Assembly (NCBI GenBank): GCA_016786705.1
Contig: JAEUVV010000002.1
Coordinates: 50,106-114,105 of the forward strand
Length of the DNA: 64,000 nt
DNA from: Taibaiella sp.
Lineage (GTDB): Bacteria; Bacteroidota; Bacteroidia; Chitinophagales; Chitinophagaceae
Reading direction: 5' to 3'
Shown in pieces: positions 25,554-40,209 of the stretch; the first letter of the stretch is position 1, and each line of letters starts with the position of its first letter. The position numbers were made by a program, and so were the translations under genes. A model generated the notes under the pieces. The model did not search any database. It saw nothing but the letters and a program-made list of their open reading frames with translations, and was not told the DNA's origin.

Positions 25554-27536
25554 TTGAAAAAAATAACCTGTAAAATTCTTTTAATTTTATTTGCGGTACT
25601 ATTAACCCCTCTGTTATCCCGCGCCCAGGTAAAACCGGACCTTGACAATGAGGACAGCCTGGTTCGTTATTTAAAAATGGATAAGCATCCGGATTATCCC
25701 GAAGCTTCAGCCTTCTATATACAAAACATTGTCCGGCAAAATATTGACCCTTACGGATCGGATATCCAGGTAGATATCGCCTTAAAAATATTTAAGGTTA
25801 ATGACGTAGCGGAGTATGTCAACTTTATTTTACCCAAATTTACCCAGGGTATTAAATTAAAAGAATTTAAAGTAAGGACCTATAATCTCGAAAATGGATT
25901 GTTGCAAACAAGAGAACTGGATAAGAAATCACTCCAGGAAACTAAAATAAAAAAAGGCAAATCAATTCAAACGATCAGTGCAGCACATGCAAAAGACGGC
26001 TCTATTGTCCACTACCAGTTCACCATACATGGCAGCGCTGCCGGCTTGTTCCTATTCCAGGACGAATTGCCGGTACACTATGCTGAATTTACAGTAAAAA
26101 CATTAAAGGATACAAAGATTAAAGTAAAAGAAAGTATCAACACGCCATTTAAGGTATTTACCGATAAACCGGCATTCTTTAGTTCGCCCCTGCCTTCAAT
26201 TGCGATTGCCGACAGGCAGAGAAGATATATCGTCTATACATGGATCAAAAGAGACCTTGCCCCGTTTAAAGAAGAAATATTTACCTCTAAACAAAAACCG
26301 GAGCAATTAAGTATTGATTTTTACCATATAGAACAAAACATTCATAGTGAAGACAGCGAATTCCAAAACTACACCTGGAAAACTTACAATACCGTCTTGT
26401 ATCAACAGTACAGCAGTGCTTTTACAAAAAATAATTTTTTAGCAAAGCATTTACCTGCGATAACCGGGAAAGAGCAGGATACCCTTAAATTGGCACAAAA
26501 TCTTTTTAAATATGTTCAGGACAGCTTTAATGTAGGGAATGATTTAAAAACGAAAGATATCGAAAAGCTGGTGAAGGATAAAGAAGGTAACCAGGATGCT
26601 TTAAATATGCTACTATGTGCCCTATACCGGCAGGCAGGCCTGACCAGTGATCTTGTATTGGTGAGTCTGGAAAGGAAAAGACCCTTATCGCCCGGCAGGG
26701 TCACTATGAGCCACACAACGATTGCCGTAAGAGTGATGATCAATGGTGTAGCCTATCTTTGTGCCCCCGACCAGAAAAAATTACCTTTTGGCTATTTGCC
26801 CTATGCTTACTATAATGGATATACCCGCTTAATCAATAAAGAAGGGGGTTCAATAGTATTAAGCCCTGAATTGGCAAAAAACAAGATCGACGTAGCGGTG
26901 ACGATAAGTCCTGTTGATACGCTGCATCGGAAATTTAAAATTGAGTTCCGTAAAAGTTACGGTATATATGGCTCTGCCAGTGAACGGGAGCGTTACCGGA
27001 AAGACACTGCCGCCTATCACGATTTTTTTAAAAAACGTCTTGAAGCGCTTAGCCCTGATCTGAATACGAGCAATTACGCCTTCAAAGCAGAAAACTCAGA
27101 AAATATAGAACAGCCTTTGGTCCTAGCCGGGGCAGGAGAAATCGACCTGGGTGACCATCCCGGGATATTGTTTTTAGACCCATTCTTACAAAAAATATAT
27201 GATGGTCAAAACCCGTTCCAGCAAATGAAAGATCGGGATACTGATGTGGAAATGGATTTTTGCTATACGCTGAATTATAACTTCCGTTTACACCTCAATC
27301 CTAAAATGAGCGTTGAAGAACTGCCTTCAAGAAGCACTCTTCATTACGCCAGCCCGGCAGCGATCATGTATTCCCAGGGAGCCAGCTACAATCCATCTGA
27401 CAATAGCGTTGAAGTAAAATACACTTATGATATTATCCCGGTATTTTATGCGCCTGAAGAAGTGGCAGACCTCAATGCTTTTTATACAGAAGTTATGAAA
27501 ACGATCAATCAAAAATTATTGCTTAATAAAAAATAA
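25554..27536 (+). CDS. DUF3857/transglutaminase-like protein, non-catalytic paralog 3
   Basis: Paralog; GNQDALN at the GDCK position. Confidence 0.8.
   Translation: MKKITCKILLILFAVLLTPLLSRAQVKPDLDNEDSLVRYLKMDKHPDYPEASAFYIQNIVRQNIDPYGSDIQVDIALKIFKVNDVAEYVNFILPKFTQGIKLKEFKVRTYNLENGLLQTRELDKKSLQETKIKKGKSIQTISAAHAKDGSIVHYQFTIHGSAAGLFLFQDELPVHYAEFTVKTLKDTKIKVKESINTPFKVFTDKPAFFSSPLPSIAIADRQRRYIVYTWIKRDLAPFKEEIFTSKQKPEQLSIDFYHIEQNIHSEDSEFQNYTWKTYNTVLYQQYSSAFTKNNFLAKHLPAITGKEQDTLKLAQNLFKYVQDSFNVGNDLKTKDIEKLVKDKEGNQDALNMLLCALYRQAGLTSDLVLVSLERKRPLSPGRVTMSHTTIAVRVMINGVAYLCAPDQKKLPFGYLPYAYYNGYTRLINKEGGSIVLSPELAKNKIDVAVTISPVDTLHRKFKIEFRKSYGIYGSASERERYRKDTAAYHDFFKKRLEALSPDLNTSNYAFKAENSENIEQPLVLAGAGEIDLGDHPGILFLDPFLQKIYDGQNPFQQMKDRDTDVEMDFCYTLNYNFRLHLNPKMSVEELPSRSTLHYASPAAIMYSQGASYNPSDNSVEVKYTYDIIPVFYAPEEVADLNAFYTEVMKTINQKLLLNKK
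27348..27524 (+). repeat. 177-nt direct repeat, copy B
   Basis: Near-identical to 25223..25399. Confidence 0.9.
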
Positions 27537-27543
27537 AGCTGCC

Positions 27544-29478
27544 ATGCAAAATACTCTCCTTTACCTCCTCACCTGCCTGCTGGTACTCCTCTCTTGTACT
27601 ACTGCTTATACCAATCCATACGCTTTTGACAAAATACCGGATACACTGAAGCATAATGCACATGCGGTAATACGGCTGGACAGCACCAGGATTGAGATCA
27701 AAAACAATGGATTCGTTAAACGATCCACCTATATTGTTACTATACTCTCCGAAGAAGGGGACCAATTCGCAACTTTTGTCGGTGACTACAACTCCTACAG
27801 CACTTTTGAATCGCTGACCGCAGTACAATACAATGAAAAAGGAAAAGAAGTACGTAAAAAAAGTAAATCTGACTTTAACGACATTTCTGCTTTTGGCACT
27901 AATTATGCCTTCCTGCAGGATGACCGTTTTAAGGTATTTGATTTCAATTGCCAGACCTACCCTTATACGGTAAAATTTGAATATGAAAAAAAATTCAAAA
28001 GCCTGTTCTTTATCTCCAACTGGCAACCTCAAAGCAATCCAAAACTTTCTGTAGAAAAGGCGGTACTTGAAATTGCTTACCAGGGAGCGCAGCCTCTGCG
28101 GCACAAATCGGTCAACTTTCTGACATCCGATCATTTCCGTGAGGATAATACCGACCCTAAAAAGCAAATTTACAAATGGACCTTTCTTAACCTGAATGCC
28201 TTTGACTATCAACCTTACTCCAGGACCTTTCTATTGAAAAAACCCGTTGTCGAATTATTTGCCAACAAGATACAATTAGATAACTATGAAGGACCGGCAA
28301 CTACATGGAATGATTTTGGCTTCTTTTTCTACAACCTGAATAAAGATAAAGACCTGCTGTCTGCTAAAAATGCAGCCCAGATCGCAGAACTGACTAAAGG
28401 AGTAGCAGACCCCAAAAAGAAAGTAGAACTATTATATAATTACCTGCAACAAAACACGCGCTATGTACTTAATTCCAGAGGTATATTAGGCTGGCAAACG
28501 ATCTCGGCAAATGATGTGCATGAAACCGGTTATGGCGACTGTAAAGGCCTCTCCAATTATATGAAGGCTATGCTGAAAGCAGTAAACATACCCGCCTACC
28601 TGACCCTGGTATATGCCGGTGATAAACTGGGACATACAATGGATAAAGACTTTCCCACCAATACTTTTAACCATGTTATTTTATGTGTTCCCCTGGAAAA
28701 AGATACGGTCTGGCTGGAATGTACCTCCAATCTCTATCCGGCTGGATATCTCGGCGATTTCACCCACAACCGGGAGGTTTTGGTCCTTACAGAGAATGGC
28801 GGACAGATAGCCTATACACCTCATTATAAACAAAAAGACTGTTTCCTGGAAAGGAGTATAACAGTAGACCTTGACCTTGAAAAATCGGCACAAAATATAA
28901 ACTGGCAGTCGAAATATGCCGGGATTATGGCAGAGAAGGCACTGGATATGGCTACCAATAAACCTAAGAAGGCTTATGAAGACTTTTTAAACAAAGCTGT
29001 GCCCTATAAGAATTTCAAAACTAAGGAAGTGCATTCAGAGAAAAAGACATCCTCCACACACATCCCGGTGGTAAAAGAAACGGCCACCTATGAAGTGGAC
29101 CATCTTCTGACGGAAACAAAAACCAGGTACCTGCTTTCTTTGCCGCTCATACAAACCGAGCTGCCTGATATCGAAACAAAATCTGCAAGAACAGAGTCTT
29201 TCGTTTTCGTTTCAGACCTCAAGTTGAATTACCTGTATACTATAGCTTATCCGGACTCTTTAGTCCCGGAAAATATCCCTAAAGTAATAACGGAGCAATA
29301 TCCTTTCGGTAGTTATAGCTATACACCTACTGTTTCCGGAAATAAAATTTCAGTGCGTATAGAATTACTGATCAATGAAGGCACCTTTGGTCCTGAACTC
29401 TATAATCATTACCTGCAATTCTATAAAACAGCAATCAATAACACCAAACAAATCACGCTTTCCTTTCTAAAAAAATAA
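27544..29478 (+). CDS. DUF3857 plus transglutaminase-like protein with intact catalytic residues
   Basis: Signal peptide; YGDCKGLS (Cys), FNHVI (His), WLECT (acid). Confidence 0.9.
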   Translation: MQNTLLYLLTCLLVLLSCTTAYTNPYAFDKIPDTLKHNAHAVIRLDSTRIEIKNNGFVKRSTYIVTILSEEGDQFATFVGDYNSYSTFESLTAVQYNEKGKEVRKKSKSDFNDISAFGTNYAFLQDDRFKVFDFNCQTYPYTVKFEYEKKFKSLFFISNWQPQSNPKLSVEKAVLEIAYQGAQPLRHKSVNFLTSDHFREDNTDPKKQIYKWTFLNLNAFDYQPYSRTFLLKKPVVELFANKIQLDNYEGPATTWNDFGFFFYNLNKDKDLLSAKNAAQIAELTKGVADPKKKVELLYNYLQQNTRYVLNSRGILGWQTISANDVHETGYGDCKGLSNYMKAMLKAVNIPAYLTLVYAGDKLGHTMDKDFPTNTFNHVILCVPLEKDTVWLECTSNLYPAGYLGDFTHNREVLVLTENGGQIAYTPHYKQKDCFLERSITVDLDLEKSAQNINWQSKYAGIMAEKALDMATNKPKKAYEDFLNKAVPYKNFKTKEVHSEKKTSSTHIPVVKETATYEVDHLLTETKTRYLLSLPLIQTELPDIETKSARTESFVFVSDLKLNYLYTIAYPDSLVPENIPKVITEQYPFGSYSYTPTVSGNKISVRIELLINEGTFGPELYNHYLQFYKTAINNTKQITLSFLKK

Positions 29479-29638: not shown

Positions 29639-30541
29639 TTGTCAACTAATACTACTGCTGTAAATTCGCTAAGAATAAAACTACTTCCTTCATTCTTAGA
29701 AAACCTGATCGCATCAAAAACAGGCAAGTATTTATTTTATCTTTTTAATATTTTCATGATGGAAAAAAGAGTGTTTATTGTTACCGGTGCAGCGGTAGGA
29801 TTGGGCTTTGCCACTGCAAATCAACTGGCCTCCACAGGTGCGGAATTAACCCTGGTGGATTATGATGCAGCCGCGTTAAAACTTGCAAAAAAAACGATCG
29901 GTGAAAAATACCCGGATATCGCAATCGTTACGGTAGTAGGGGATGTTTCAAAAGAAGAAACGGCGAAGAATTATGTAGCGGAAACAATGAAGGTATTCGG
30001 CCGCATCGACGGTTTGTACAACAATGCCGGCATTGAAGGCCGCCAGGCTCCTCTAGTGGAATACAACCTGGAGATTTTTGAAAAAGTTATCGATATCAAT
30101 TTAATGGGCGTTTACTTTGGTATGCGCCACGTCATCCCGGTGATGCAGGATCAGCAATACGGACGTATCGTTAATGTAGCTTCTGTAGGCGGCATCCGTG
30201 GTGTCGTTAACCAAACCGCCTATGTAGCCTCTAAGCATGCAGTTGTAGGCATGACCAAAAATGCAGCGATTGAATATGCAAAAGACAACATTCTGACGAA
30301 TGCGATTGCACCAGGCGCGATCCTGACACCTATGGTCGAAGAGGCTTTCAAACAAGTCAACCCGGAAGATCCAAAAGCTGCGGAAGCTACTTATGCCAGC
30401 CGCAACCCTACAAGAAGACTGGGCGTTCCTGAAGATGTAGCAAAAGTAGTGTCGTTTCTGCTAAGCGAAGACAATGGTTATGTAAACGGACAGACGATTG
30501 CCATTGATGGTGGTGAGTCTGAGTTATATGGCAATGCCTAA
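29639..30541 (-). CDS. Short-chain dehydrogenase/reductase
   Basis: TGAAVGLG, NNAGIEG, YVASKHAV, NAIAPG; real start likely MMEKRV at 30424 on the minus strand. Confidence 0.93.
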
Positions 30542-30608
30542 ATGATAAAGCCTTTAACGTTCCAAAGGAATTAATACCGGAATCAGGCAATCAAATCATT
30601 TCAAAATA

Positions 30609-30643
30609 AAAGCCCCCGCAAAGTGACACTTTACGGGGGCTTT
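30609..30643. terminator. Intrinsic terminator downstream of the 30701-34688 operon
   Basis: aaagcccccg...cgggggcttt hairpin. Confidence 0.8.
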
Positions 30644-30700: not shown

Positions 30701-31630
30701 CTAATTTGTGATCTTCTTGAATTGGATTACTCCTTTGTCACCATTGGCTAACTGGTAACGCATAAAGTAAGTACCGTCCGAAAGGGTTGACACATCCACT
30801 GCGATCTTATTCTGCCCATTGACCAGCTTTTGATTCAACTTTAAGCGCTCTATACCGGAAACTACATTAAACACACTGATGTCCATAGTTCCACCAGGCT
30901 CATCTTGATACAATTCCAAGAAGATAAACCTGCTGGCCGGGTTAGGATACCAGACTACAGCATTCTCTTTTTTATAAATCAGCATCCTTACCGGGCTATA
31001 CATCATACTGCCATCTTCATCCATAATCTTCAGCCGATAAAAATTATATCCTTTAGCCAGTCTTTCATCTATATACCTGTAGTTTTGCTTACCTGCCCCC
31101 GCAGTCGCATGTATAGTACCCAGGTAATGGAATGTTCGTCCATCATAAGACCGTTCAACTTCGTAGCGTACCTTTGTCTGCGTACTACCGGTTGCGGTCC
31201 ATTCAAGCAATGCAGCGTCCTGCTGATACAAACGTACTGTAAAATCCAGCAGATCCAAAGGAAGCGGCGCTCCATTACAATCAAACTGAACAAGCGTATC
31301 TGTGTAACAGGTGTTATTACTCACACGGAATACTGCTGAAGTGATCCCAGCCACACCGGAAAAAGTACCTGTCGTATTATCCGCTACAGGCGCGATTGCA
31401 GGTGTTGTGTTTACTATAGAATATACGTAGCCTGCGTTATGATTAGACACATGAACTTGTATTGGTATACCACTCGTACAGTTATAGCTTACCGAATCTA
31501 TTACAGGAAGCGCATTAACCTGGACCTGGGTAGTCGACAGCACCTGTGCACCGGCCTGCTGCGGGAGCATGAGTATCCCGCAACAAGCTATGCTGTACAC
31601 ATAAATAACAATAAACCTGAAACAATACAT
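30701..31630 (-). CDS. Small T9SS cargo (putative anchor subunit): N-terminal strand, one Ig-like module, PLPLDLL junction, type A CTD
   Basis: Signal AGA|Q; mature QVLSTTQVQVNALP; WYPNPA...LSDGTYF...QFKKITN. Confidence 0.85.
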   Translation of the reverse strand: MYCFRFIVIYVYSIACCGILMLPQQAGAQVLSTTQVQVNALPVIDSVSYNCTSGIPIQVHVSNHNAGYVYSIVNTTPAIAPVADNTTGTFSGVAGITSAVFRVSNNTCYTDTLVQFDCNGAPLPLDLLDFTVRLYQQDAALLEWTATGSTQTKVRYEVERSYDGRTFHYLGTIHATAGAGKQNYRYIDERLAKGYNFYRLKIMDEDGSMMYSPVRMLIYKKENAVVWYPNPASRFIFLELYQDEPGGTMDISVFNVVSGIERLKLNQKLVNGQNKIAVDVSTLSDGTYFMRYQLANGDKGVIQFKKITN

Positions 31631-31670: not shown

Positions 31671-32945
31671 CTAAGGGGTCACCGGATTGCTACATCCATT
31701 TGCGTCCGTTATTTTCATCAGGTTATACGTATTGGTCGCGTTAGGTGTAATCATTGAAGATGGTATCGTAACAGTACCACCATTCGCTACATTAGAATAA
31801 GTCTGGGTACCGCTTACACCACTTTTCTCAATTTCAAGGCTAAAGTTTCCTGTACCACAGGTTGCATTGAAGGATAATTGTACTGCTGAGCCTTCACAAA
31901 GCTCCGGAGCAAGCGCCGCGATAGAGCCATTAGGTTTAGGACGTACCGTTACGGTAAAGGACTGTGGCGTACCCGCACAGGCTACTGCATTGTTAGTAAA
32001 TGTTGGTGTTACTGCTATCGTAGCCACTTCATTGGTACAAGAAGGCGTGTTATCGTTGGCAGCAGTGAAGGCAGCTATATTGCCGGTACCGCTCGCTGCA
32101 ATACCTACAGCAGTATTGGTATTGGTCCAGTCATAGGTAACACCACCTGTGCTCGTACTGGAGAAGCTGATCTCGGGCACTGAATTGCCTTCACATTTCG
32201 TAATATCACTTAAAGTGCCTGCAAATGCCGGAGTAGGATTAACCGTGATCGTATAGGTCACTGCCGTACCGGTACAACCTTCATATACCGGGGTAATAGA
32301 AATTGTAGCAGTCACCGGAGCGGTACCCGTATTGCCGGCGGTGAAGCCGGGTACCTGAGACACATTAGTAACATCGGCTAAACCTATACCGGCACCTCCG
32401 CTGATGTTAAAGGTCACACCAGGCGTTACGCCGGTAGGTGTACTACTCACACTTGTTGCCGGAACAGCCTGACTGTTACATACGGTCATATTAGCCGGTG
32501 CAGTAGCGGTAGGTATTGGATTAATCGTTACTGTAACCGGTAGGGCGTTCGTTGTATAGTTACAATAACCACCTTCGGCCCTTACATAGTATGTTTTCGT
32601 GATCGGCTGTGTGCCGGTATTAGCAGGGCTGACGGTAAGGCTTGCACCGTTTCCTATAGAAGTGCTGCCTGTTGTAGGCGCTGCATCAGCGTACCACACC
32701 CATTGAGCGGCCGGGGTTCCGGAGCCCAGATGTCCGTTTGAAATAGACAAGGTAGTACTTCCACCGGTACAAAAACTGGTATTGGAAGCGGATACAGTAG
32801 CTCCCGATATAGAGGAGCTATCGTTGACAACAACGCTTGTTGAACTGATCTGGGCGAGGGTCTTCTGGCTCCCCAGGAAAGTAATGCCTACGGCACCGCA
32901 AAGTGCCCATAACATTACACGCATAGTGTAATTGATTCTTTTCAT
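31671..32945 (-). CDS. Secreted Ig/PKD-like repeat protein without CTD (putative shaft subunit)
   Basis: Signal TLA|Q; mature QISSTSVVVN; repeats ending TVTINPIP, TITVNPTP, TVTVRPKP; ends KITDANGCSNPVTP*. Confidence 0.8.
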   Translation of the reverse strand: MKRINYTMRVMLWALCGAVGITFLGSQKTLAQISSTSVVVNDSSSISGATVSASNTSFCTGGSTTLSISNGHLGSGTPAAQWVWYADAAPTTGSTSIGNGASLTVSPANTGTQPITKTYYVRAEGGYCNYTTNALPVTVTINPIPTATAPANMTVCNSQAVPATSVSSTPTGVTPGVTFNISGGAGIGLADVTNVSQVPGFTAGNTGTAPVTATISITPVYEGCTGTAVTYTITVNPTPAFAGTLSDITKCEGNSVPEISFSSTSTGGVTYDWTNTNTAVGIAASGTGNIAAFTAANDNTPSCTNEVATIAVTPTFTNNAVACAGTPQSFTVTVRPKPNGSIAALAPELCEGSAVQLSFNATCGTGNFSLEIEKSGVSGTQTYSNVANGGTVTIPSSMITPNATNTYNLMKITDANGCSNPVTP

Positions 32946-32996
32946 TTTTTCCTACTTGTTTAAAATGGATAATTAATTTTTATTTCATAAGGTCTG

Positions 32997-34688
32997 TTAA
33001 GGTGATTGCTTGACGCAACCATTATTATCGGTAATCTTGGTCAGGTTGAAAGTAGTAGTTATAGCGACGTTACCCACCGCTGTAAAGGGGGTACCGCTCG
33101 TAATATTTGTATAGGTAGTTCCATTAATAATCAAACTAAAAGGCCCGGCGCCTGATGTTGCGGTAAAAATGAGCTGCACGGCATTGCCCTCGCATACGGG
33201 ACTGGCTGCTGCGCTGATTGTACCATCTGGCAAAGCGTTGACCACGACAGTAGCGGTAGCGGACATGGTATTATTACAGACCGGTGCCGATTGAAAAGCC
33301 ACACTCTGAACGACATAGGCGAAGTTACCCGCCGTACCGGTAGGGACAGCCAGGGTCGCATTACCGGATGCCGGTACATTAATCGTTTGGTTAGCCCCGC
33401 CATTGAGTTTATAGGTCACAGTAACCGGCAGCGATGCCGGATTGCTAAAAGTAATGCTGGGGGAAGGTGCATTCATACAAACAGTAGTCCCGCCACTTAA
33501 AGTAACAGAAGGTACAGGTCTTATGACCACTTTAACCACGTTGCTTTCGTCGGTCAGTGTTGTGGCAGAAGGCATACCGCTATTTGTGCGGGTGACACTT
33601 AATACTCTGCGGTAAAAATAAGTACCTGCAGCCGTAACGGTGGGAGTATAAGAAATGCCGTTTGCGCCGCTTACATTAGTAAAATTAACACTGTCGGATG
33701 AAAGTTGCCATTGGTAGCTCACCGTAAATCCTGCAGTTGAAGCTATCGGGGCATCTGTGAACGCATTGTTCCCGCTCAGCTGTGCGATCGTACCTCCACT
33801 ACAGATCGTCTGGTCTGCAGCTATAGTATTAGGTACTTTTGCCAGGTTCTGGAAGCTCAGCCGGTTTCCTCCTGCAGATTCATAATACTCCAGCAATAAA
33901 TTAGAATTTCCACTAAGCTTAAAAAATTGTTTAGGATAATTAGTATAGCCTTGCTCTACCCACCTGTTAAACACCAGCACGTTATCAACCGTTAGCCGCA
34001 CCCCGTCATCGGCCCCCATATCGGCAAGATAAATGCCCTTGGGTTTGGTACTGTTCATCCTGAGCCGGGTAGCAAAATATTCTGTGTACAAGCGTGCTCT
34101 TAATGTATTATTCGAATACATATCAACACATGCCGCATCGCCGTCAAAGCCATAGTCAAATGACTCCGGTTGCGGTGTGACTGCCAGACCTATATACCGG
34201 TTAAATCCATTGGTCTCATTAGGAGCAGAAGCAGAACCATCTAAGCGTTTGTAGTAGTGAACCTGCCATTGATTGGCACCCGCAGCCAGGGCATTATCTT
34301 CGGTATTACTGCCCCCGGAAAAGGTATGAGTGATCGTTGTGGAGCCACTACCGAAAGTTCTGCAATTGTACACTCTAACTTGCCCGGAAATTGCCGCAGT
34401 AAATGTTATCGAATTGCCTGTACTGCTGTGTAAAGTAGCACTTCCGTTAATTACAGTAATCCCATTTACAGAATTGCTGACTGTATATTGAAGGCCTTTT
34501 ATTACATTCAATAACGTATAATTGCCGAAGCCGACACCTGAAATAGTGGGATTGACACCATTACCAATGCAAATATAAACTGGTGCCCCTACACTGGAAC
34601 CTCCGCTACACTGAGCATAGCCCTTTGAAGAAAAAACAAACAGACCTAAATGGACAAAAGCCCATAAGGATACTTTAAAAATTTTCAT
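32997..34688 (-). CDS. Secreted PA14-like plus Ig-repeat protein without CTD (putative tip adhesin)
   Basis: Signal GYA|Q; ADDGVRLTVD...LEYYESAGG PA14-like motif; ends KITDNNGCVKQSP*. Confidence 0.8.
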   Translation of the reverse strand: MKIFKVSLWAFVHLGLFVFSSKGYAQCSGGSSVGAPVYICIGNGVNPTISGVGFGNYTLLNVIKGLQYTVSNSVNGITVINGSATLHSSTGNSITFTAAISGQVRVYNCRTFGSGSTTITHTFSGGSNTEDNALAAGANQWQVHYYKRLDGSASAPNETNGFNRYIGLAVTPQPESFDYGFDGDAACVDMYSNNTLRARLYTEYFATRLRMNSTKPKGIYLADMGADDGVRLTVDNVLVFNRWVEQGYTNYPKQFFKLSGNSNLLLEYYESAGGNRLSFQNLAKVPNTIAADQTICSGGTIAQLSGNNAFTDAPIASTAGFTVSYQWQLSSDSVNFTNVSGANGISYTPTVTAAGTYFYRRVLSVTRTNSGMPSATTLTDESNVVKVVIRPVPSVTLSGGTTVCMNAPSPSITFSNPASLPVTVTYKLNGGANQTINVPASGNATLAVPTGTAGNFAYVVQSVAFQSAPVCNNTMSATATVVVNALPDGTISAAASPVCEGNAVQLIFTATSGAGPFSLIINGTTYTNITSGTPFTAVGNVAITTTFNLTKITDNNGCVKQSP

Positions 34689-34745: not shown

Positions 34746-34753
34746 CAAAGGTA
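34746..34753 (-). promoter_or_regulatory. -7 element for the 34688 operon
   Basis: TACCTTTG on the minus strand about 58 nt upstream of the start. Confidence 0.55.
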
Positions 34754-34903: not shown

Positions 34904-35599
34904 CTAGAACAAATAACCGACCCGGACACTTAATGGAAAATTGACATTCCAGGAACGGCCTTCCCGGTTAAAAGCCGTCGGGAAATTAAAATGCGGCACC
35001 GGGGCAAATCCATCTTGTGGATTGATCCGCCCTGAATGTGTCGCATTACGGTATTGTAGCCCTATACCGCCGTAAAAATCTACTATAATGCGCTTAAAAC
35101 TGGTATAGTAGCCGAATTTAAAATTCAGGCAAAAGTTGTTTTTGGTAAGCTCAAAAGTATCCTTGTAATGTTGCAGTTCAGATAATTCAAAATTCATTGC
35201 CGCTCTGTTCCGGCTGTACATATAATCCACTTCCCCGGCAACATAAGTCCCTTTATGCCCCAGCTTACGCAGGTAATATTTTTGCTCTGCTGCTATTTTA
35301 AAGCCCTTTTTGTCCGGGTCAACTGTCGTTTCAAAAATGTTTAAAGGAGGGCGCGGGAGTAAATAAGTCCCTGCAAGCTGTGTACTCCATCTGCTTTTAT
35401 ACATACGTTCATAGCTCAGCTCTACCCCGGGATTTACCCAACCTATTAACTTAAGGGGTGTAAATTTTAGCTGGTTAAAATAACCTTTGACGCCGGGATG
35501 CTGAAACGCCAGTTCCTTATAACTCTGGCCTGCAGCCCATGTATGGCACACAATTAACAGCCAGAAGCTGCCAGCCAGTTTTCCAAGTATAGATCTCAT
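34904..35599 (-). CDS. DUF3575-like outer-membrane beta-barrel protein, paralog 1
   Basis: Signal peptide; NQLKFTPLKL, ELSYER; ends SVRVGYLF. Confidence 0.75.
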   Translation of the reverse strand: MRSILGKLAGSFWLLIVCHTWAAGQSYKELAFQHPGVKGYFNQLKFTPLKLIGWVNPGVELSYERMYKSRWSTQLAGTYLLPRPPLNIFETTVDPDKKGFKIAAEQKYYLRKLGHKGTYVAGEVDYMYSRNRAAMNFELSELQHYKDTFELTKNNFCLNFKFGYYTSFKRIIVDFYGGIGLQYRNATHSGRINPQDGFAPVPHFNFPTAFNREGRSWNVNFPLSVRVGYLF

Positions 35600-35739: not shown

Positions 35740-36450
35740 CTAAAACAGGTAACCGATCCGCATTGTTAATGGGAAATAGGGCTCCCAGGAACGCCCATCA
35801 CGATTATAAATAGGTGCTAATGTGAAATGTGGAAACGGCCCTGCAAATTGGTCCTGTGGATGGATACGCCCTGACTGTTGTGCATTGCGATATTGTGCTC
35901 CCAATCCCCCGGAAAAGCTAACCATTATTCTCTTTAAAGTGAAGTAATAGCCACATTTAAGACTAAAATAAAGGTTGTTCTTAGTAATTTCAAAAGTATC
36001 CCTGTAAGGACGGGCCAGGGTGATTGATTCAAAGCTCATTGCAGTTGTATTACGGCTATATAAATAGGCGACCTCTGCGGCCACATAGAAGCCCTTGCGC
36101 GCCATTTTATGCACATAAAATTTTTCTTCCGCAGCTATTTTAAAGCCGCTTTTATCCCCGTATGGCGCCGGCGGCCGCTTTTCTAATAAAGTGTATGGCA
36201 ATAAATAGGTTGCTGTCAACTGGCTGCTCCACCTGCTTTTATCCATACGTTCATAACCGAGCTCTATCCCGGGGTTGAGCCAGCCCAATAATTTAAGCGG
36301 TGCAAACTGTAATTGATTAAGATAACCTTTCAATCTAAACGAGGTATCGCCAGCTACAGCAGGATCATTATTAGTTTGGGCAAAAGCTGCAGTAGGGAGC
36401 AACAAAAGGAAACAAAAACTATTGATCAGCCTGAACCGGGTAGCTTTCAT
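35740..36450 (-). CDS. DUF3575-like outer-membrane beta-barrel protein, paralog 2
   Basis: Close paralog of 34904..35599; ends TMRIGYLF. Confidence 0.75.
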   Translation of the reverse strand: MKATRFRLINSFCFLLLLPTAAFAQTNNDPAVAGDTSFRLKGYLNQLQFAPLKLLGWLNPGIELGYERMDKSRWSSQLTATYLLPYTLLEKRPPAPYGDKSGFKIAAEEKFYVHKMARKGFYVAAEVAYLYSRNTTAMSFESITLARPYRDTFEITKNNLYFSLKCGYYFTLKRIMVSFSGGLGAQYRNAQQSGRIHPQDQFAGPFPHFTLAPIYNRDGRSWEPYFPLTMRIGYLF

Positions 36451-36840: not shown

Positions 36841-39800
36841 TTACAAAGCACCTTCAAGGAAAAAATGTACATCGTCCATACTGTGAATGTGATTCACCAC
36901 AAGTAAAAACACGGTACCCATCTGCTTCATTTTGGCCTGGTTGGTACCCGTCTGTATATAATTCATAATCTTATGAAAGGTCTCACTTTCATAATAGGGA
37001 GAATCCGGGTTATTGATGAAATACAAACGCATCACTTTGTTCTTGATGATCAGTTTCTCGAAGCCCAGGTCTTTTGCCATTTTACGGCAACGCACTACAG
37101 TAAACAGGTCCTTCACTTCCCGCGGTATCGGCCCGAAACGGTCTACCAGCATAGCTTCAAAGGACCGCAGCTCTTCTTCCGTTTCCAGGTTATCCAGCTG
37201 CGTGTATAAAGATAAACGTTCTGTGATACTGCCCACATAAGTATCGGGAATCAATATCTCGAGATCAGTGTCGATCGTACAGTCAGAAACATAATCTTTC
37301 TTACGCTCCATTTCTTCGGCAAATACTTCTTTGAAGTCGCTTTGCTTTAATTCCCGGATCGCTTCTGCCAATATCTTCTGGTACATCTCAAAACCTATGT
37401 CCGCTATAAAGCCGCTTTGCTCACCGCCCAGCAGGTTACCCGCTCCCCGGATATCCAGGTCGCGCATAGCGATCTGGAAGCCGCTGCCCAGCTCATTAAA
37501 CTCTTCCAGTATCTGTAAACGCCTGCGACTGTCATTTGGCAAAGTCAACAAAGATGGGGCGACCAGGTAACAGAATGCTTTCTTGTTACTACGCCCTACC
37601 CGGCCCCTTAACTGGTGCAGGTCGCTCAGGCCGAACTGGTGCGCGTTGTTGATAATAATGGTATTGGCATTACTGATATCCACACCCGACTCCACGATAT
37701 TGGTACAGCAGATCACATCATATTTATGCGCGATAAAGTCCATCAGCGTTTTCTCCAGCTTCGCACCTTCCATCTGGCCATGCGCTACAGCGATTTCCAG
37801 GTCAGGACACAGCGCTTTAATCTTCTCCGCCATAGACGGCAGGCTCTGCACGCGGTTATGGATAAAGTAAACCTGTCCGCCCCGCTCCGCTTCATAATAA
37901 ATGGCATCCCGGATAAAGTCTTCATCAAAACCGATGAGCTCGGTATGCACCGGCTGGCGGTTAGGCGGCGGAGTATTGATAATACTCAGGTCACGCGCCG
38001 CCATCAGCGAAAACTGCAGCGTACGCGGTATAGGTGTAGCCGTTAAGGTAAGCGTATCAACATTCAGTTTGCGCTCTCTTAATTTTTCTTTAGCGGCCAC
38101 CCCAAATTTCTGCTCTTCATCCACGATATATAAACCCAGGTCTTTAAATTTCACATCCTTACCCATTAGCGCATGTGTGCCTATAAGAATATCGATTTTA
38201 CCTTCCTCCAGTTTTTGTAAAGTTTCTTTTTTGTCCTTAGCCGATTTAAAACGGTTCAGGTAATCTACGTTCACCGGGAAGTCCTTCAGCCGCTCACTAA
38301 AGGTCTGGTAGTGCTGGTAAGCCAGGATGGTTGTCGGCACCATCACCGCCACCTGTTTACTATCGGTAACCGCTTTAAAAGCGGCACGTACGGCGACTTC
38401 GGTCTTGCCGAACCCAACATCTCCGCACACCAGGCGGTCCATAGGATTAGGCGATTCCATATCCCGTTTCACATCCGCCACAGCTTTAGACTGGTCCGGG
38501 GTATCTTCATAGAAGAAAGAAGCTTCCAGTTCCGTTTGCAGGTACGAGTCCGGGGTAAACATAAAACCTTCTGCCGCTTTGCGCTGCGCATAAAGCCGGA
38601 TCAGGTCGGCAGCGATGTCTTTCACCTGCCGCTTGGTCTTATCTTTTAAGCGGTTCCAGGTATCACTCCCCAGCTTATGCACCTTGGGCTCCGTACCTTC
38701 TTTGCCCGCATATTTAGAGATCTTATGCAGGGAGTTGATGCCTACATAAAGCACATCATTGTCTTTATAAATGATCCTTACCGCTTCCTGCTTAGCACCG
38801 TTCACATCAATGGTTTGCAGCCCACTGTACACGCCCACACCATAGTCTATATGGCTGACGAAATCGCCGGGCTGCAATTCCCGCAAAGACTTTATGGTAA
38901 TCGCTTTGCCTTTACTATAGGCCTGCTTGATCTTATATTTATAAAAGCGCTGGAAGATCTGGTGATCAGTATAGACCAGGACTTTTTTATCATGATCGAT
39001 AAAACCATTACTGATCGAAACCGGTACCGGTACAAAGCTGACGCTGGCATTGGTGTCTTCAAAGATCACCCTTAAACGTTCCAGCTGCTTCACGTTCTCG
39101 GCAAAAATATAAGCGGTATAATGCTGTTCTGCCCATTTTCTCAGATTGGCCGATAAGAGGTCAAAATTCCGGTTGAAGCTGGGCTGTGGCTCTGTATGAA
39201 AAGTAAGGCTCACATTTTCGCCACCTTCTTTTCCTTCTGTATTGGAAAACTGGATTTGGTGATAATCATTGATGCGCGCTTTCCAGGATTCCGCGGATTC
39301 AAAATCCGCTTCCGTCAACAGTTTAGGCTCCTCGTCCTCCTCTGCACGTTGTTCCAGTACCCCCTCATTGATAGCAAGTAGTTCTTGCAATTTGTCTTCA
39401 TAATGCGCCAGCTTGCCCAGGAAAATATCTTTATCCTTAAACCAGAAGACGGTATTCCCGGGCACAAAATCCAGCAGGGACACCTTTTCCGTAGCCTCAA
39501 AACGGGTTTCTATATTCGGCAGGATGGATACCTGCAGCAATTTCCGTTCCGACAATTGCGTTTCAGGATTAAAAATCCGGATACTATCTACTTCATTGCC
39601 AAAAAGCTCAATCCGGTAAGGATGCTCATTCCCGAAAGAGTAAATATCCAGGATTCCCCCGCGCATGGCGAATTGTCCCGGTTCATATACAAAATCCTCG
39701 TGCCGGAATCCCAGCTCAACCAGTCGCGTCAGTATCCCTTTTACATCGAGGTGATTATTGACCGCGATCTGGATCATATTTTTACTCAGGGTCTTGGCCT

Positions 39801-40209
39801 GTACCACTTTTTCAAAGAGCGCTTCCGGGTAAGTGACCATCACTTTCTTACGCACCTGTTCGCCGCTCCATTTATTGAGGGCTTCGGTACGCAGCATAAC
39901 ATGGCTGCTGTTGATGTCGGTATACACCCCGGTCTTTTTATTAGAATCCGGGAAAAAGAAAATATCCAGGGCACCGCTCAGGTGCTCGAAATCGTTGTGA
40001 AAATAGGCGGCTTCGTCTTTATCATCCAGGATGAAGATATGGTTCAGCTCCGATTGCTCCCAGATACTATGCGCTACAAAACCTACCGCGTTGGCTTTCA
40101 GGTTTTGCAGGAGTATGTTTTGCTTGGGTTGGGGCAATGAGCAGGCGGCTGCCAGTTCTTTTAAACGGACATCAGACGAGTATAAGCCTTGCAGTGTTTG
40201 CAGGTTCAT
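36841..40209 (-). CDS. mfd: Transcription-repair coupling factor Mfd
   Basis: FAMRGGILDI, CarD-like GDFVSHIDYGVG, CGDVGFGKTEVA, DEEQKFGV, QLRGRVGRS, RDLDIRGAGNLLG. Confidence 0.99.
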   Translation of the reverse strand: MNLQTLQGLYSSDVRLKELAAACSLPQPKQNILLQNLKANAVGFVAHSIWEQSELNHIFILDDKDEAAYFHNDFEHLSGALDIFFFPDSNKKTGVYTDINSSHVMLRTEALNKWSGEQVRKKVMVTYPEALFEKVVQAKTLSKNMIQIAVNNHLDVKGILTRLVELGFRHEDFVYEPGQFAMRGGILDIYSFGNEHPYRIELFGNEVDSIRIFNPETQLSERKLLQVSILPNIETRFEATEKVSLLDFVPGNTVFWFKDKDIFLGKLAHYEDKLQELLAINEGVLEQRAEEDEEPKLLTEADFESAESWKARINDYHQIQFSNTEGKEGGENVSLTFHTEPQPSFNRNFDLLSANLRKWAEQHYTAYIFAENVKQLERLRVIFEDTNASVSFVPVPVSISNGFIDHDKKVLVYTDHQIFQRFYKYKIKQAYSKGKAITIKSLRELQPGDFVSHIDYGVGVYSGLQTIDVNGAKQEAVRIIYKDNDVLYVGINSLHKISKYAGKEGTEPKVHKLGSDTWNRLKDKTKRQVKDIAADLIRLYAQRKAAEGFMFTPDSYLQTELEASFFYEDTPDQSKAVADVKRDMESPNPMDRLVCGDVGFGKTEVAVRAAFKAVTDSKQVAVMVPTTILAYQHYQTFSERLKDFPVNVDYLNRFKSAKDKKETLQKLEEGKIDILIGTHALMGKDVKFKDLGLYIVDEEQKFGVAAKEKLRERKLNVDTLTLTATPIPRTLQFSLMAARDLSIINTPPPNRQPVHTELIGFDEDFIRDAIYYEAERGGQVYFIHNRVQSLPSMAEKIKALCPDLEIAVAHGQMEGAKLEKTLMDFIAHKYDVICCTNIVESGVDISNANTIIINNAHQFGLSDLHQLRGRVGRSNKKAFCYLVAPSLLTLPNDSRRRLQILEEFNELGSGFQIAMRDLDIRGAGNLLGGEQSGFIADIGFEMYQKILAEAIRELKQSDFKEVFAEEMERKKDYVSDCTIDTDLEILIPDTYVGSITERLSLYTQLDNLETEEELRSFEAMLVDRFGPIPREVKDLFTVVRCRKMAKDLGFEKLIIKNKVMRLYFINNPDSPYYESETFHKIMNYIQTGTNQAKMKQMGTVFLLVVNHIHSMDDVHFFLEGAL

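Follow-up and report, generated by a model that had tools for sequence, protein, structure and literature searches.

Donor-strand complementation, i.e., the completion of an open immunoglobulin (Ig)-like domain by a strand from another polypeptide, has so far been tied to two kinds of pili. The subunits of chaperone-usher pili (type 1 and P) are single pilin domains with an Ig-like fold that lacks its C-terminal G strand; the N-terminal extension of the next subunit fills this gap, and these systems comprise a PapD-like chaperone and an usher. The type V pili (FimA/Mfa1) of Porphyromonas gingivalis are strand-exchange fibers of Bacteroidota in which one operon covers the roles of tip, shaft, and anchor (PMC4789730, PMC8512630). 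Besides such fibers, there are single-chain adhesins built of Ig-like repeats that employ the T9SS (type IX secretion system), such as GhpA, the T9SS-secreted grappling hook of Aureispira (bioRxiv 10.1101/2024.01.29.577165). Here, we analyze three consecutive genes, called A, B, and C, in a 64,000-nucleotide stretch of DNA from Taibaiella sp. (GCA_016786705.1, contig JAEUVV010000002.1, positions 50,106 to 114,105 of the forward strand), to which we refer as the window and from whose first letter all positions are counted.

A and B encode secreted proteins that end in an Ig-like domain without its last strand, and the mature proteins encoded by B and C begin with a segment that resembles such a strand. 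Our best explanation is a defined A·B·C rod of tip, shaft, and anchor that would be held together by N-terminal donor-strand complementation and be exported and anchored through C, a reading to which we give a probability of roughly 0.58. An earlier note on this DNA, made from its letters alone, had likened the uneven distribution of donors and acceptors to that of pilus operons; this asymmetry is real, conserved, and non-random, and an order of tip, shaft, and anchor is the best way to read it.

Open terminal domains and strand-like N-termini

The three genes lie on the minus strand as one operon in the order A-B-C (A, 32997-34688, 563 aa; B, 31671-32945, 424 aa; C, 30701-31630, 309 aa), with spacers of 51 nt between A and B and 40 nt between B and C. 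All three products start with a Sec-type signal peptide that is cut before a glutamine (GYA/QCSGG, TLA/QISS, and AGA/QVLS, with the slash marking the cut), as judged by eye, and such cleavage fits the "Q-rule" of Bacteroidetes (PMC5837995).

In B, the candidate shaft subunit, the signal peptide (aa 1-31; 32853-32945) ends in ...TLA, and both A31 and Q32 are near-invariant among 26 orthologs (39-88% identity). The mature protein then opens with a G-strand-like donor segment, QISSTSVVVNDSS (aa 32-44; 32814-32852), whose core QISSTSVVVN (residues 32-41) lies at 32852-32823, exactly where the earlier note had placed it. Its consensus among the orthologs is AQISSxTVTVNDxSS, with an invariant V40 and at least 90% conservation of A31, Q32, S34, and S44, and its positions vary less than those of the mature protein overall (entropy of 0.85 versus 1.17 bits). 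In an AlphaFold2 model built from the 26-sequence alignment, which has four beta domains and a predicted local distance difference test score (pLDDT) of 88.5, the donor has no secondary structure (pLDDT about 66) and is not packed onto its own protein.

The donor is followed by a rod of three complete Ig-like domains (aa 45-335; 31941-32813), of which one matches Ig_7 (PF19081; 29.5 bits, cut-off 27.3) and two are PKD_5-like; the PKD_5 match (PF19406) stays under its cut-off (20.9 bits, cut-off 25) and is recurrent among homologs. Domains 2 and 3 (aa 144-335) each close with a full, long G strand in the model, at residues 229-236 and 328-335. Unlike these, the terminal domain (aa 336-424; 31674-31940) is modeled confidently (pLDDT 87-94) yet has no long final strand: its strands run at 339-344, 355-363, 368-374, 381-386, 391-394, and 407-413, followed by just 419-421. 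This acceptor domain ends in YNLMKITDANGCSNPVTP directly before the stop codon (...ANGCSNPVTP), and all 26 orthologs end in ...KITDANGC plus 3-6 residues. Residues 405-418, i.e., the F strand and the cysteine of the acceptor, are the most conserved 14-aa window of B. The best Foldseek matches of B in the PDB are to the Ig rod of GhpA (9flp, 9fls, 9flv).

B also carries cysteines beyond one pair per domain, C303 in domain 3 (about 32037-32039) and C363 in the acceptor (about 31857-31859). In the B alignment, both are absent from P0036 and from P0041 (the latter being the B protein of locus L068), C363 is absent from the B proteins of L009 and L066, and A-type acceptors carry S, Q, or A at the position of C363. 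This pattern suggests an inter-domain disulfide staple in B.

The product of A, the candidate tip subunit, starts with a signal peptide (aa 1-25; 34614-34688; ...GYA/QC), followed by an N-terminal beta domain, a PA14-like domain, and three Ig-like domains, of which two are complete and the terminal one lacks its G strand. Its mature N-terminus, QCSGGSS, shows no strand-like pattern and thus no donor, even though Q26 and C27 are near-invariant among the orthologs. The terminal domain (aa 484-563; 33000-33239) ends in FNLTKITDNNGCVKQSP before the stop codon (...NNGCVKQSP), shortly past the conserved cysteine, and the terminal strand is missing from all A orthologs examined. The PA14-like head that the earlier note had seen (about aa 130-290; 33819-34301) finds support in the orthologs, 7 of 12 of which match PA14 (PF07691) at E ≤ 0.01 with a best value of 2.3e-5; the window protein itself remains below the threshold (15 bits, cut-off 24; E = 0.022). 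One Saprospiraceae ortholog is named a PA14 domain protein by NCBI, and the head is probably glycan-binding.

C, the candidate anchor subunit, has a signal peptide (aa 1-28; 31547-31630; ...AGA/Q), a donor strand, two beta domains, and a C-terminal sorting domain (CTD) for the T9SS, with no acceptor. The donor is again the mature N-terminus, QVLSTTQVQVNALP (aa 29-42; 31505-31546), a G-strand-like segment that begins with QVLSTTQVQVN precisely at 31546 as the earlier note had it; the consensus of its orthologs is AQIxSTxVxVxxxPVIDS. An AlphaFold2 model of modest confidence (pLDDT 65.9) leaves residues 21-40 unstructured, with a donor that again does not pack onto its own chain (pLDDT below 50), ahead of the two beta domains and the CTD. 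The latter (aa 225-309; 30704-30958; Pfam match 228-297) is of type A and scores above the cut-offs of both PF18962 (35.2 bits, cut-off 27) and TIGR04183 (26.8 bits, cut-off 23), as the earlier note had anticipated.

Within the triplet, only C carries such a domain: A and B have no match to PF18962, PF13585, TIGR04183, or TIGR04131 at E ≤ 1. With a Sec signal peptide and no CTD, A and B would therefore need a carrier to reach the cell surface. The domain that precedes the CTD of C (residues 126-219; about 30974-31255) reads ..LPLDLLDF..LEW....RYEVERSYDGRTF..YRLKI.D.DGS..YS and is of the same type as in single-chain proteins with PA14 and CTD such as P0276, which supports the notion that the three proteins jointly imitate a single adhesin.

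Over their last ca. 85 residues, A and B are homologous, and this stretch also has homology to a repeat that occurs in many copies in giant single-chain proteins of Bacteroidota (1000-5800 aa). In complete single-chain copies (e.g., in P0146 and P0240), there invariably come about 5-9 residues after the motif ITDxNGC and then a strand, SxTVTVNPxP, that leads into the next domain, whereas A and B stop 3-6 residues past the cysteine of this motif. We therefore built a profile of 102 positions from 181 complete copies of the domain in single-chain giant adhesins. The terminal domains of A and B of the window match this profile only to positions 80 and 82, respectively, and joining A to B or B to C extends the match to 96-97 with gains of 4.6 and 8.4 bits (z of about 3.8-4.0 relative to 200 shuffles of the peptide with matched composition), statistics that rest on an element of about 10 residues. 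The same was seen in 15 triplets from different genomes, where the acceptors alone reach 77-82 and the addition of the N-terminus of B or C takes the match to 92-98 in 15 of 15 cases, with mean gains of 7.6 bits for A+B and 6.0 bits for B+C. The mature N-terminus of A provides a natural negative control and adds nothing (-0.6 and -0.2 bits), so that the earlier note was right to describe A as an acceptor without a donor. From this match of strand patterns, and from donors that are free in the monomer models, we predict the A:B and B:C junctions.

Non-cognate pairs of the 15 triplets behave like the cognate ones (B+B, +7.0 bits; A+C, +6.4 bits). The donors of B and C share the core Q-I-x-S-x-x-V-x-V, and no class-specific residue of the donor (B versus C) or of the acceptor F strand (A versus B) that could serve as a junction code holds across all lineages; F or Y in the A acceptor partly tracks V or I at donor position 7, a correlation that is confounded by phylogeny. 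The G strand of an Ig domain extends from its N-pole to its C-pole. Given this direction and a linker of 4-5 residues, the donor should be unable to reach the acceptor of its own chain, and complementation would have to occur in trans.

One could also read the terminal domain of A and B as left open by B and C, and instead as a new sorting or attachment signal or a dock for a component of the T9SS or for another partner. In lineages with a T9SS, it always forms the very C-terminal end of secreted proteins that lack a CTD, and T9SS CTDs are themselves reported to be 7-stranded Ig-like sandwiches (PMC11285876). However, the domain bears no likeness to the type A or type B CTD models at the E-value limit given above and has its homologs among the internal structural repeats of giant adhesins, and a sorting role would leave unexplained why the product of the next gene always starts with the missing strand and A never does. 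We consider this explanation very improbable.

Conservation and variation of the triplet

The closest relatives of the triplet are found in Edaphocola and Taibaiella (Chitinophagaceae), with an Edaphocola metagenome-assembled genome (MAG) as best match at 88% identity. In every operon found, i.e., in Edaphocola, Taibaiella, a Saprospiraceae MAG, and metagenome contigs, the genes follow the order A-B-C with the same asymmetry of donors and acceptors and with one B each. Cultured carriers are Edaphocola flava HME-24, E. aurantiacus H2, Taibaiella koreensis THG-DT86, and Taibaiella sp. KBW10, and the sequencing runs that contain the DNA studied here are DNA metagenomes only. One further contig with a T9SS CTD protein in its triplet (L007, JBLMZC010000021.1) is binned as "Deltaproteobacteria bacterium"; its architecture is almost identical to that of the Saprospiraceae MAG (L008), and the contig is probably mis-binned Bacteroidota DNA. 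The A heads of these loci (312 to more than 1093 aa) are unrelated to each other. So are the flanking genes, and the triplet is thus the only conserved unit.

The heads of A are of PA14 type (470-563 aa), of 312 aa, lamin-tail/fn3-like (630-642 aa), LamG-like (about 880 aa), or longer than 1000 aa, in one case with a discoidin domain, and they span 184 to 1541 aa if the 1541-aa head gene called on one contig is included. Among the best 150 representatives at 50% identity that carry the acceptor domain, 32 end in the strand-less form; about 29 of these look genuine, and the other 3 are long multi-repeat proteins that were probably cut by contig ends. The strand-less set comprises B-type shafts of 193-447 aa with one to four complete domains and A-type heads of 184-885 aa. 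Acceptors share 51% identity among A-type, 56% among B-type, and 43% between the types, every nearest neighbor belongs to the same class, and B-type acceptors have an insertion of 6-8 residues and an extra cysteine relative to the A-type. Judging from their sequences, A-type and B-type acceptors are two anciently separated and separately conserved classes.

Two A-type heads of more than 1000 aa (L068, 1-3012; L074, 1-3282) end in ..SISDANNNTNP and ..SITDSNNYSQP and lack the near-invariant Gly-Cys, which indicates that the cysteine is not essential to the split design. Two apparent departures from the architecture did not hold up. The A gene of L069 (4240-6901) and L070 (274-2935) is called as two open reading frames of 400 and 471 aa in two independent assemblies, and these jointly align with the 885-aa LamG-like head P0229; we rejected a reading of L069 as A-B'-B-C because the two frames belong to a single A gene, interrupted by a frameshift or an assembly error. 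The 700-aa proteins P0014, P0017, P0019, and P0021, which had been candidates for fusions of B and C, turned out to be ordinary proteins with PKD_5 repeats, to which P0017 and P0021 add a CTD.

This conservation bears on the possibility that the triplet is the relic of an ancestral single-chain adhesin gene that was broken into three separately acting proteins, of which A and B would be periplasmic or exported by another route, with the strand-like N-termini and the open domains as leftovers. In favor of it, a separate signal peptide precedes each of the three, and the same domains do occur in single-chain relatives. On the other hand, families that share 40-60% overall identity keep the split points, the donor sequence, and the loss of the strand; the junction elements of B rank among its most conserved parts, many unrelated A heads show the split, and a free N-terminal strand next to a destabilized terminal domain would be unlikely to persist. 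A relic of this kind is therefore improbable, and we likewise rejected a pseudogene or otherwise broken gene in view of the signal peptide on each piece and the retention of the split across families.

The earlier note had also proposed that B could polymerize, with A-(B)n-C fibers of variable length as the outcome, and had named a B donor unable to fill the B acceptor as a finding that would speak against them. At the profile level, the B donor does fit the B acceptor, with a gain that is as good (+7.0 bits) as for A+B (+7.6 bits) and B+C. B is the sole subunit with both a donor and an acceptor, the donor cores of B and C follow one pattern, no junction-specific code was found, and both ends of B are more conserved than the acceptor of A or the donor of C. 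The product would be a T9SS-anchored, chaperone-free pilus with A as distal cap and C as terminator and anchor. Yet no operon found deviates from its single B to A-B-B-C, and the length of the shaft varies genetically between lineages (see the range above), which would be of little matter if n were free. The acceptors of A and B are distinct and anciently diverged, including the insertion in B, and the domain order of ordinary single-chain T9SS adhesins is exactly what a 1:1:1 assembly would yield. Furthermore, periplasmic growth would be uncontrolled without a chaperone and usher, and chains not capped by C could not leave the cell. With one B per operon, polymerization is a bare possibility, and we regard fibers of variable length as unlikely.

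Two tandem triplets each are present in Taibaiella sp. KBW10, E. flava, and E. aurantiacus, and a triplet is also found in T. koreensis. Where genomes carry tandem copies (loci L001/L004, L005, L006, L067, L072, and L073), these have different heads, e.g., a 562-aa PA14-type and a 312-aa head, and a B and a C of their own. The two copies hardly differ in their donors and acceptors, and cross-assembly between them therefore looks possible. If the connectors were generic altogether, B would add to itself and subunits of different triplets would mix, resulting in pili of variable length with exchangeable tips (PA14, lectin-like, discoidin, or fn3); this we hold to be doubtful.

Proposed assembly and export, and gene context

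In the A·B·C rod that we favor, the operon would encode one cell-surface adhesin in pieces that are split at two Ig-domain boundaries. Each piece would enter the periplasm via Sec and be cut by signal peptidase I before the glutamine. The N-terminal strand of B would then insert into the open terminal domain of A and that of C into the open terminal domain of B, giving a non-covalent rod with the same succession of domains as in single-chain adhesins: A as the distal tip with its PA14-like head, B as a shaft of four Ig domains, and C as the base. The CTD of C would take the whole assembly through the type IX translocon and anchor it at the surface. A stoichiometry of 1:1:1 would be the default, and occasional insertion of B into B may occur but is required by no evidence. 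Complementation in trans, the periplasm as site of assembly, and this piggy-back export, like the stoichiometry, are what we infer from the features described above.

Several points weigh against this rod. The strand has only about 10 residues, which keeps the gains in bit score modest, and the stoichiometry is argued from parsimony and gene content only. An Ig domain without one of its strands would be expected to need a chaperone, yet none is encoded nearby: neither a PapD-like chaperone nor an usher nor any other conserved accessory gene is present in or near any triplet operon examined. Piggy-back export by the T9SS of partners without a CTD is without precedent in the literature that we searched, which also yielded no donor-strand-assembled T9SS fiber but only papers on type V pili and on the T9SS in general.

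If complementation in trans is true, the T9SS carries CTD-less proteins that are plugged non-covalently into a CTD-bearing partner, which would change how T9SS secretomes are predicted. Donor-strand complementation would then work without chaperone or usher and between multi-domain rods, in a plug-and-play design that combines a conserved shaft and anchor with varied tips (PA14, LamG/lectin-like, discoidin, or fn3). Such a split design points to a means by which Bacteroidota of soil and water may diversify the specificity of adhesion, and it would offer protein engineering a natural pair of split-Ig connectors free of cysteines and isopeptide bonds. Should A-(B)n-C pili turn out to be true instead, they would represent a third, independent origin of strand-exchange pili among Gram-negative bacteria, and it would be the first time that CTD-less proteins are seen to be exported piggy-back by the T9SS.

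The sequences around the triplet are consistent with its transcription as a unit. Upstream of A, TACCTTTG (34746-34753, minus strand) matches the Bacteroidota -7 promoter motif TAnnTTTG in a pattern search, 65 nt 5' of the start codon and inside an AT-rich intergenic region of 215 nt; the reading of TAnnTTTG as a -7 motif is established knowledge on Bacteroidetes promoters. Downstream, an intrinsic terminator hairpin followed by a U-run (30603-30643, minus strand; 16-bp stem, -26.2 kcal/mol), read from the sequence, starts 58 nt past the stop codon of C. A scan for sigma-70 and terminator consensus sequences found nothing above shuffled sequences and missed this hairpin. The tight spacing of the genes, the -7 motif upstream, and the hairpin that closes C therefore mark A-B-C as one operon.

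A and B share a reading frame, and the spacer between them (32946-32996, minus strand) amounts to 17 codons with three further in-frame stops (TGA, TAA, and TAG). The read-through stretch 32517-33242 thus holds four stop codons, which excludes read-through as a way to fuse A and B; B and C lie in different frames.

Directly upstream of A, two tandem paralogs are encoded on the minus strand (34904-35599 and 35740-36450; 231 and 236 aa, 53% identical). Both have a signal peptide and a C-terminus (..VGYLF or ..IGYLF) that is typical of small outer-membrane beta-barrels. We considered them as usher or anchor of the triplet and rejected this idea, since they belong to no Pfam or NCBIfam family and have no homolog in the 70 loci searched. 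On the plus strand, 25554-27536 and 27544-29478 encode adjacent paralogs of 660 and 644 aa. The product of 27544-29478 has DUF3857, a transglutaminase-like core, and DUF3858, and that of 25554-27536 shows only a weak match to the transglutaminase core (E = 0.00015, 22.4 bits, cut-off 23). An SDR gene follows at 29639-30541, and mfd (36841-40209) lies on the other side of the triplet. None of these, i.e., the transglutaminase-like paralogs, the SDR gene, and mfd, is related to it.

Comparison with known fibers and adhesins

Type V pili share with the triplet that a single operon of Bacteroidota encodes a surface fiber with tip, shaft, and anchor, with strand exchange being a proposal in our case. 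In every defining feature that we tested, however, the two differ, and there is no sequence similarity between them. Type V pilins are made as lipoprotein precursors, whereas A, B, and C are predicted substrates of signal peptidase I (cut between A and Q): none of the three has a lipobox, the ..GYA/QC of A has a disallowed Q at position -1 of its cysteine, and B and C lack a cysteine near the cleavage site. The donor of type V pilins is C-terminal and acts after proteolytic removal of an N-terminal strand; in the triplet, the donor is N-terminal and the C-terminus forms the acceptor. Finally, the anchor is a T9SS CTD in the latter.

SpyTag/SpyCatcher is an engineered split Ig-like domain that is completed in trans by a strand peptide and locked by an isopeptide bond. 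The split of the triplet is natural, and its donors have neither an isopeptide nor a cysteine, so that the junction is presumably non-covalent.

Single-chain T9SS adhesins and Ig-repeat rods (PKD_5, Ig_7, SprB-like, and GhpA) are built from the same domain families in the same order of head, Ig repeats, pre-CTD domain, and CTD. They consist of one polypeptide, whereas the chain of the triplet is broken within a domain at two points, each with a stop codon, a spacer, and a fresh signal peptide, which leaves the final strand of that domain to be encoded by the beginning of the following gene. By descent, A, B, and C belong to these PKD_5/Ig_7-repeat T9SS adhesins.

Functionally, the closest system to the triplet is the chaperone-usher pilus. 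Its pilins have an Ig-like fold without the C-terminal G strand, just as A and B do (15 of 15 of each end at 77-82 of the profile), and the N-terminal extension of the next subunit supplies that strand in the same topology as we propose here. In both cases the tip has an acceptor and no donor, the last subunit has a donor and cannot be extended further, and one operon encodes tip, shaft, and terminator. The triplet differs from these pili by the absence of a chaperone and an usher from its operons, by multi-domain rods in place of single pilin domains, by its T9SS type A CTD as anchor, and by the lack of any sequence relationship to pilins. The major subunit of chaperone-usher pili homopolymerizes, whereas B shows a fit to itself at the level of the profile only.

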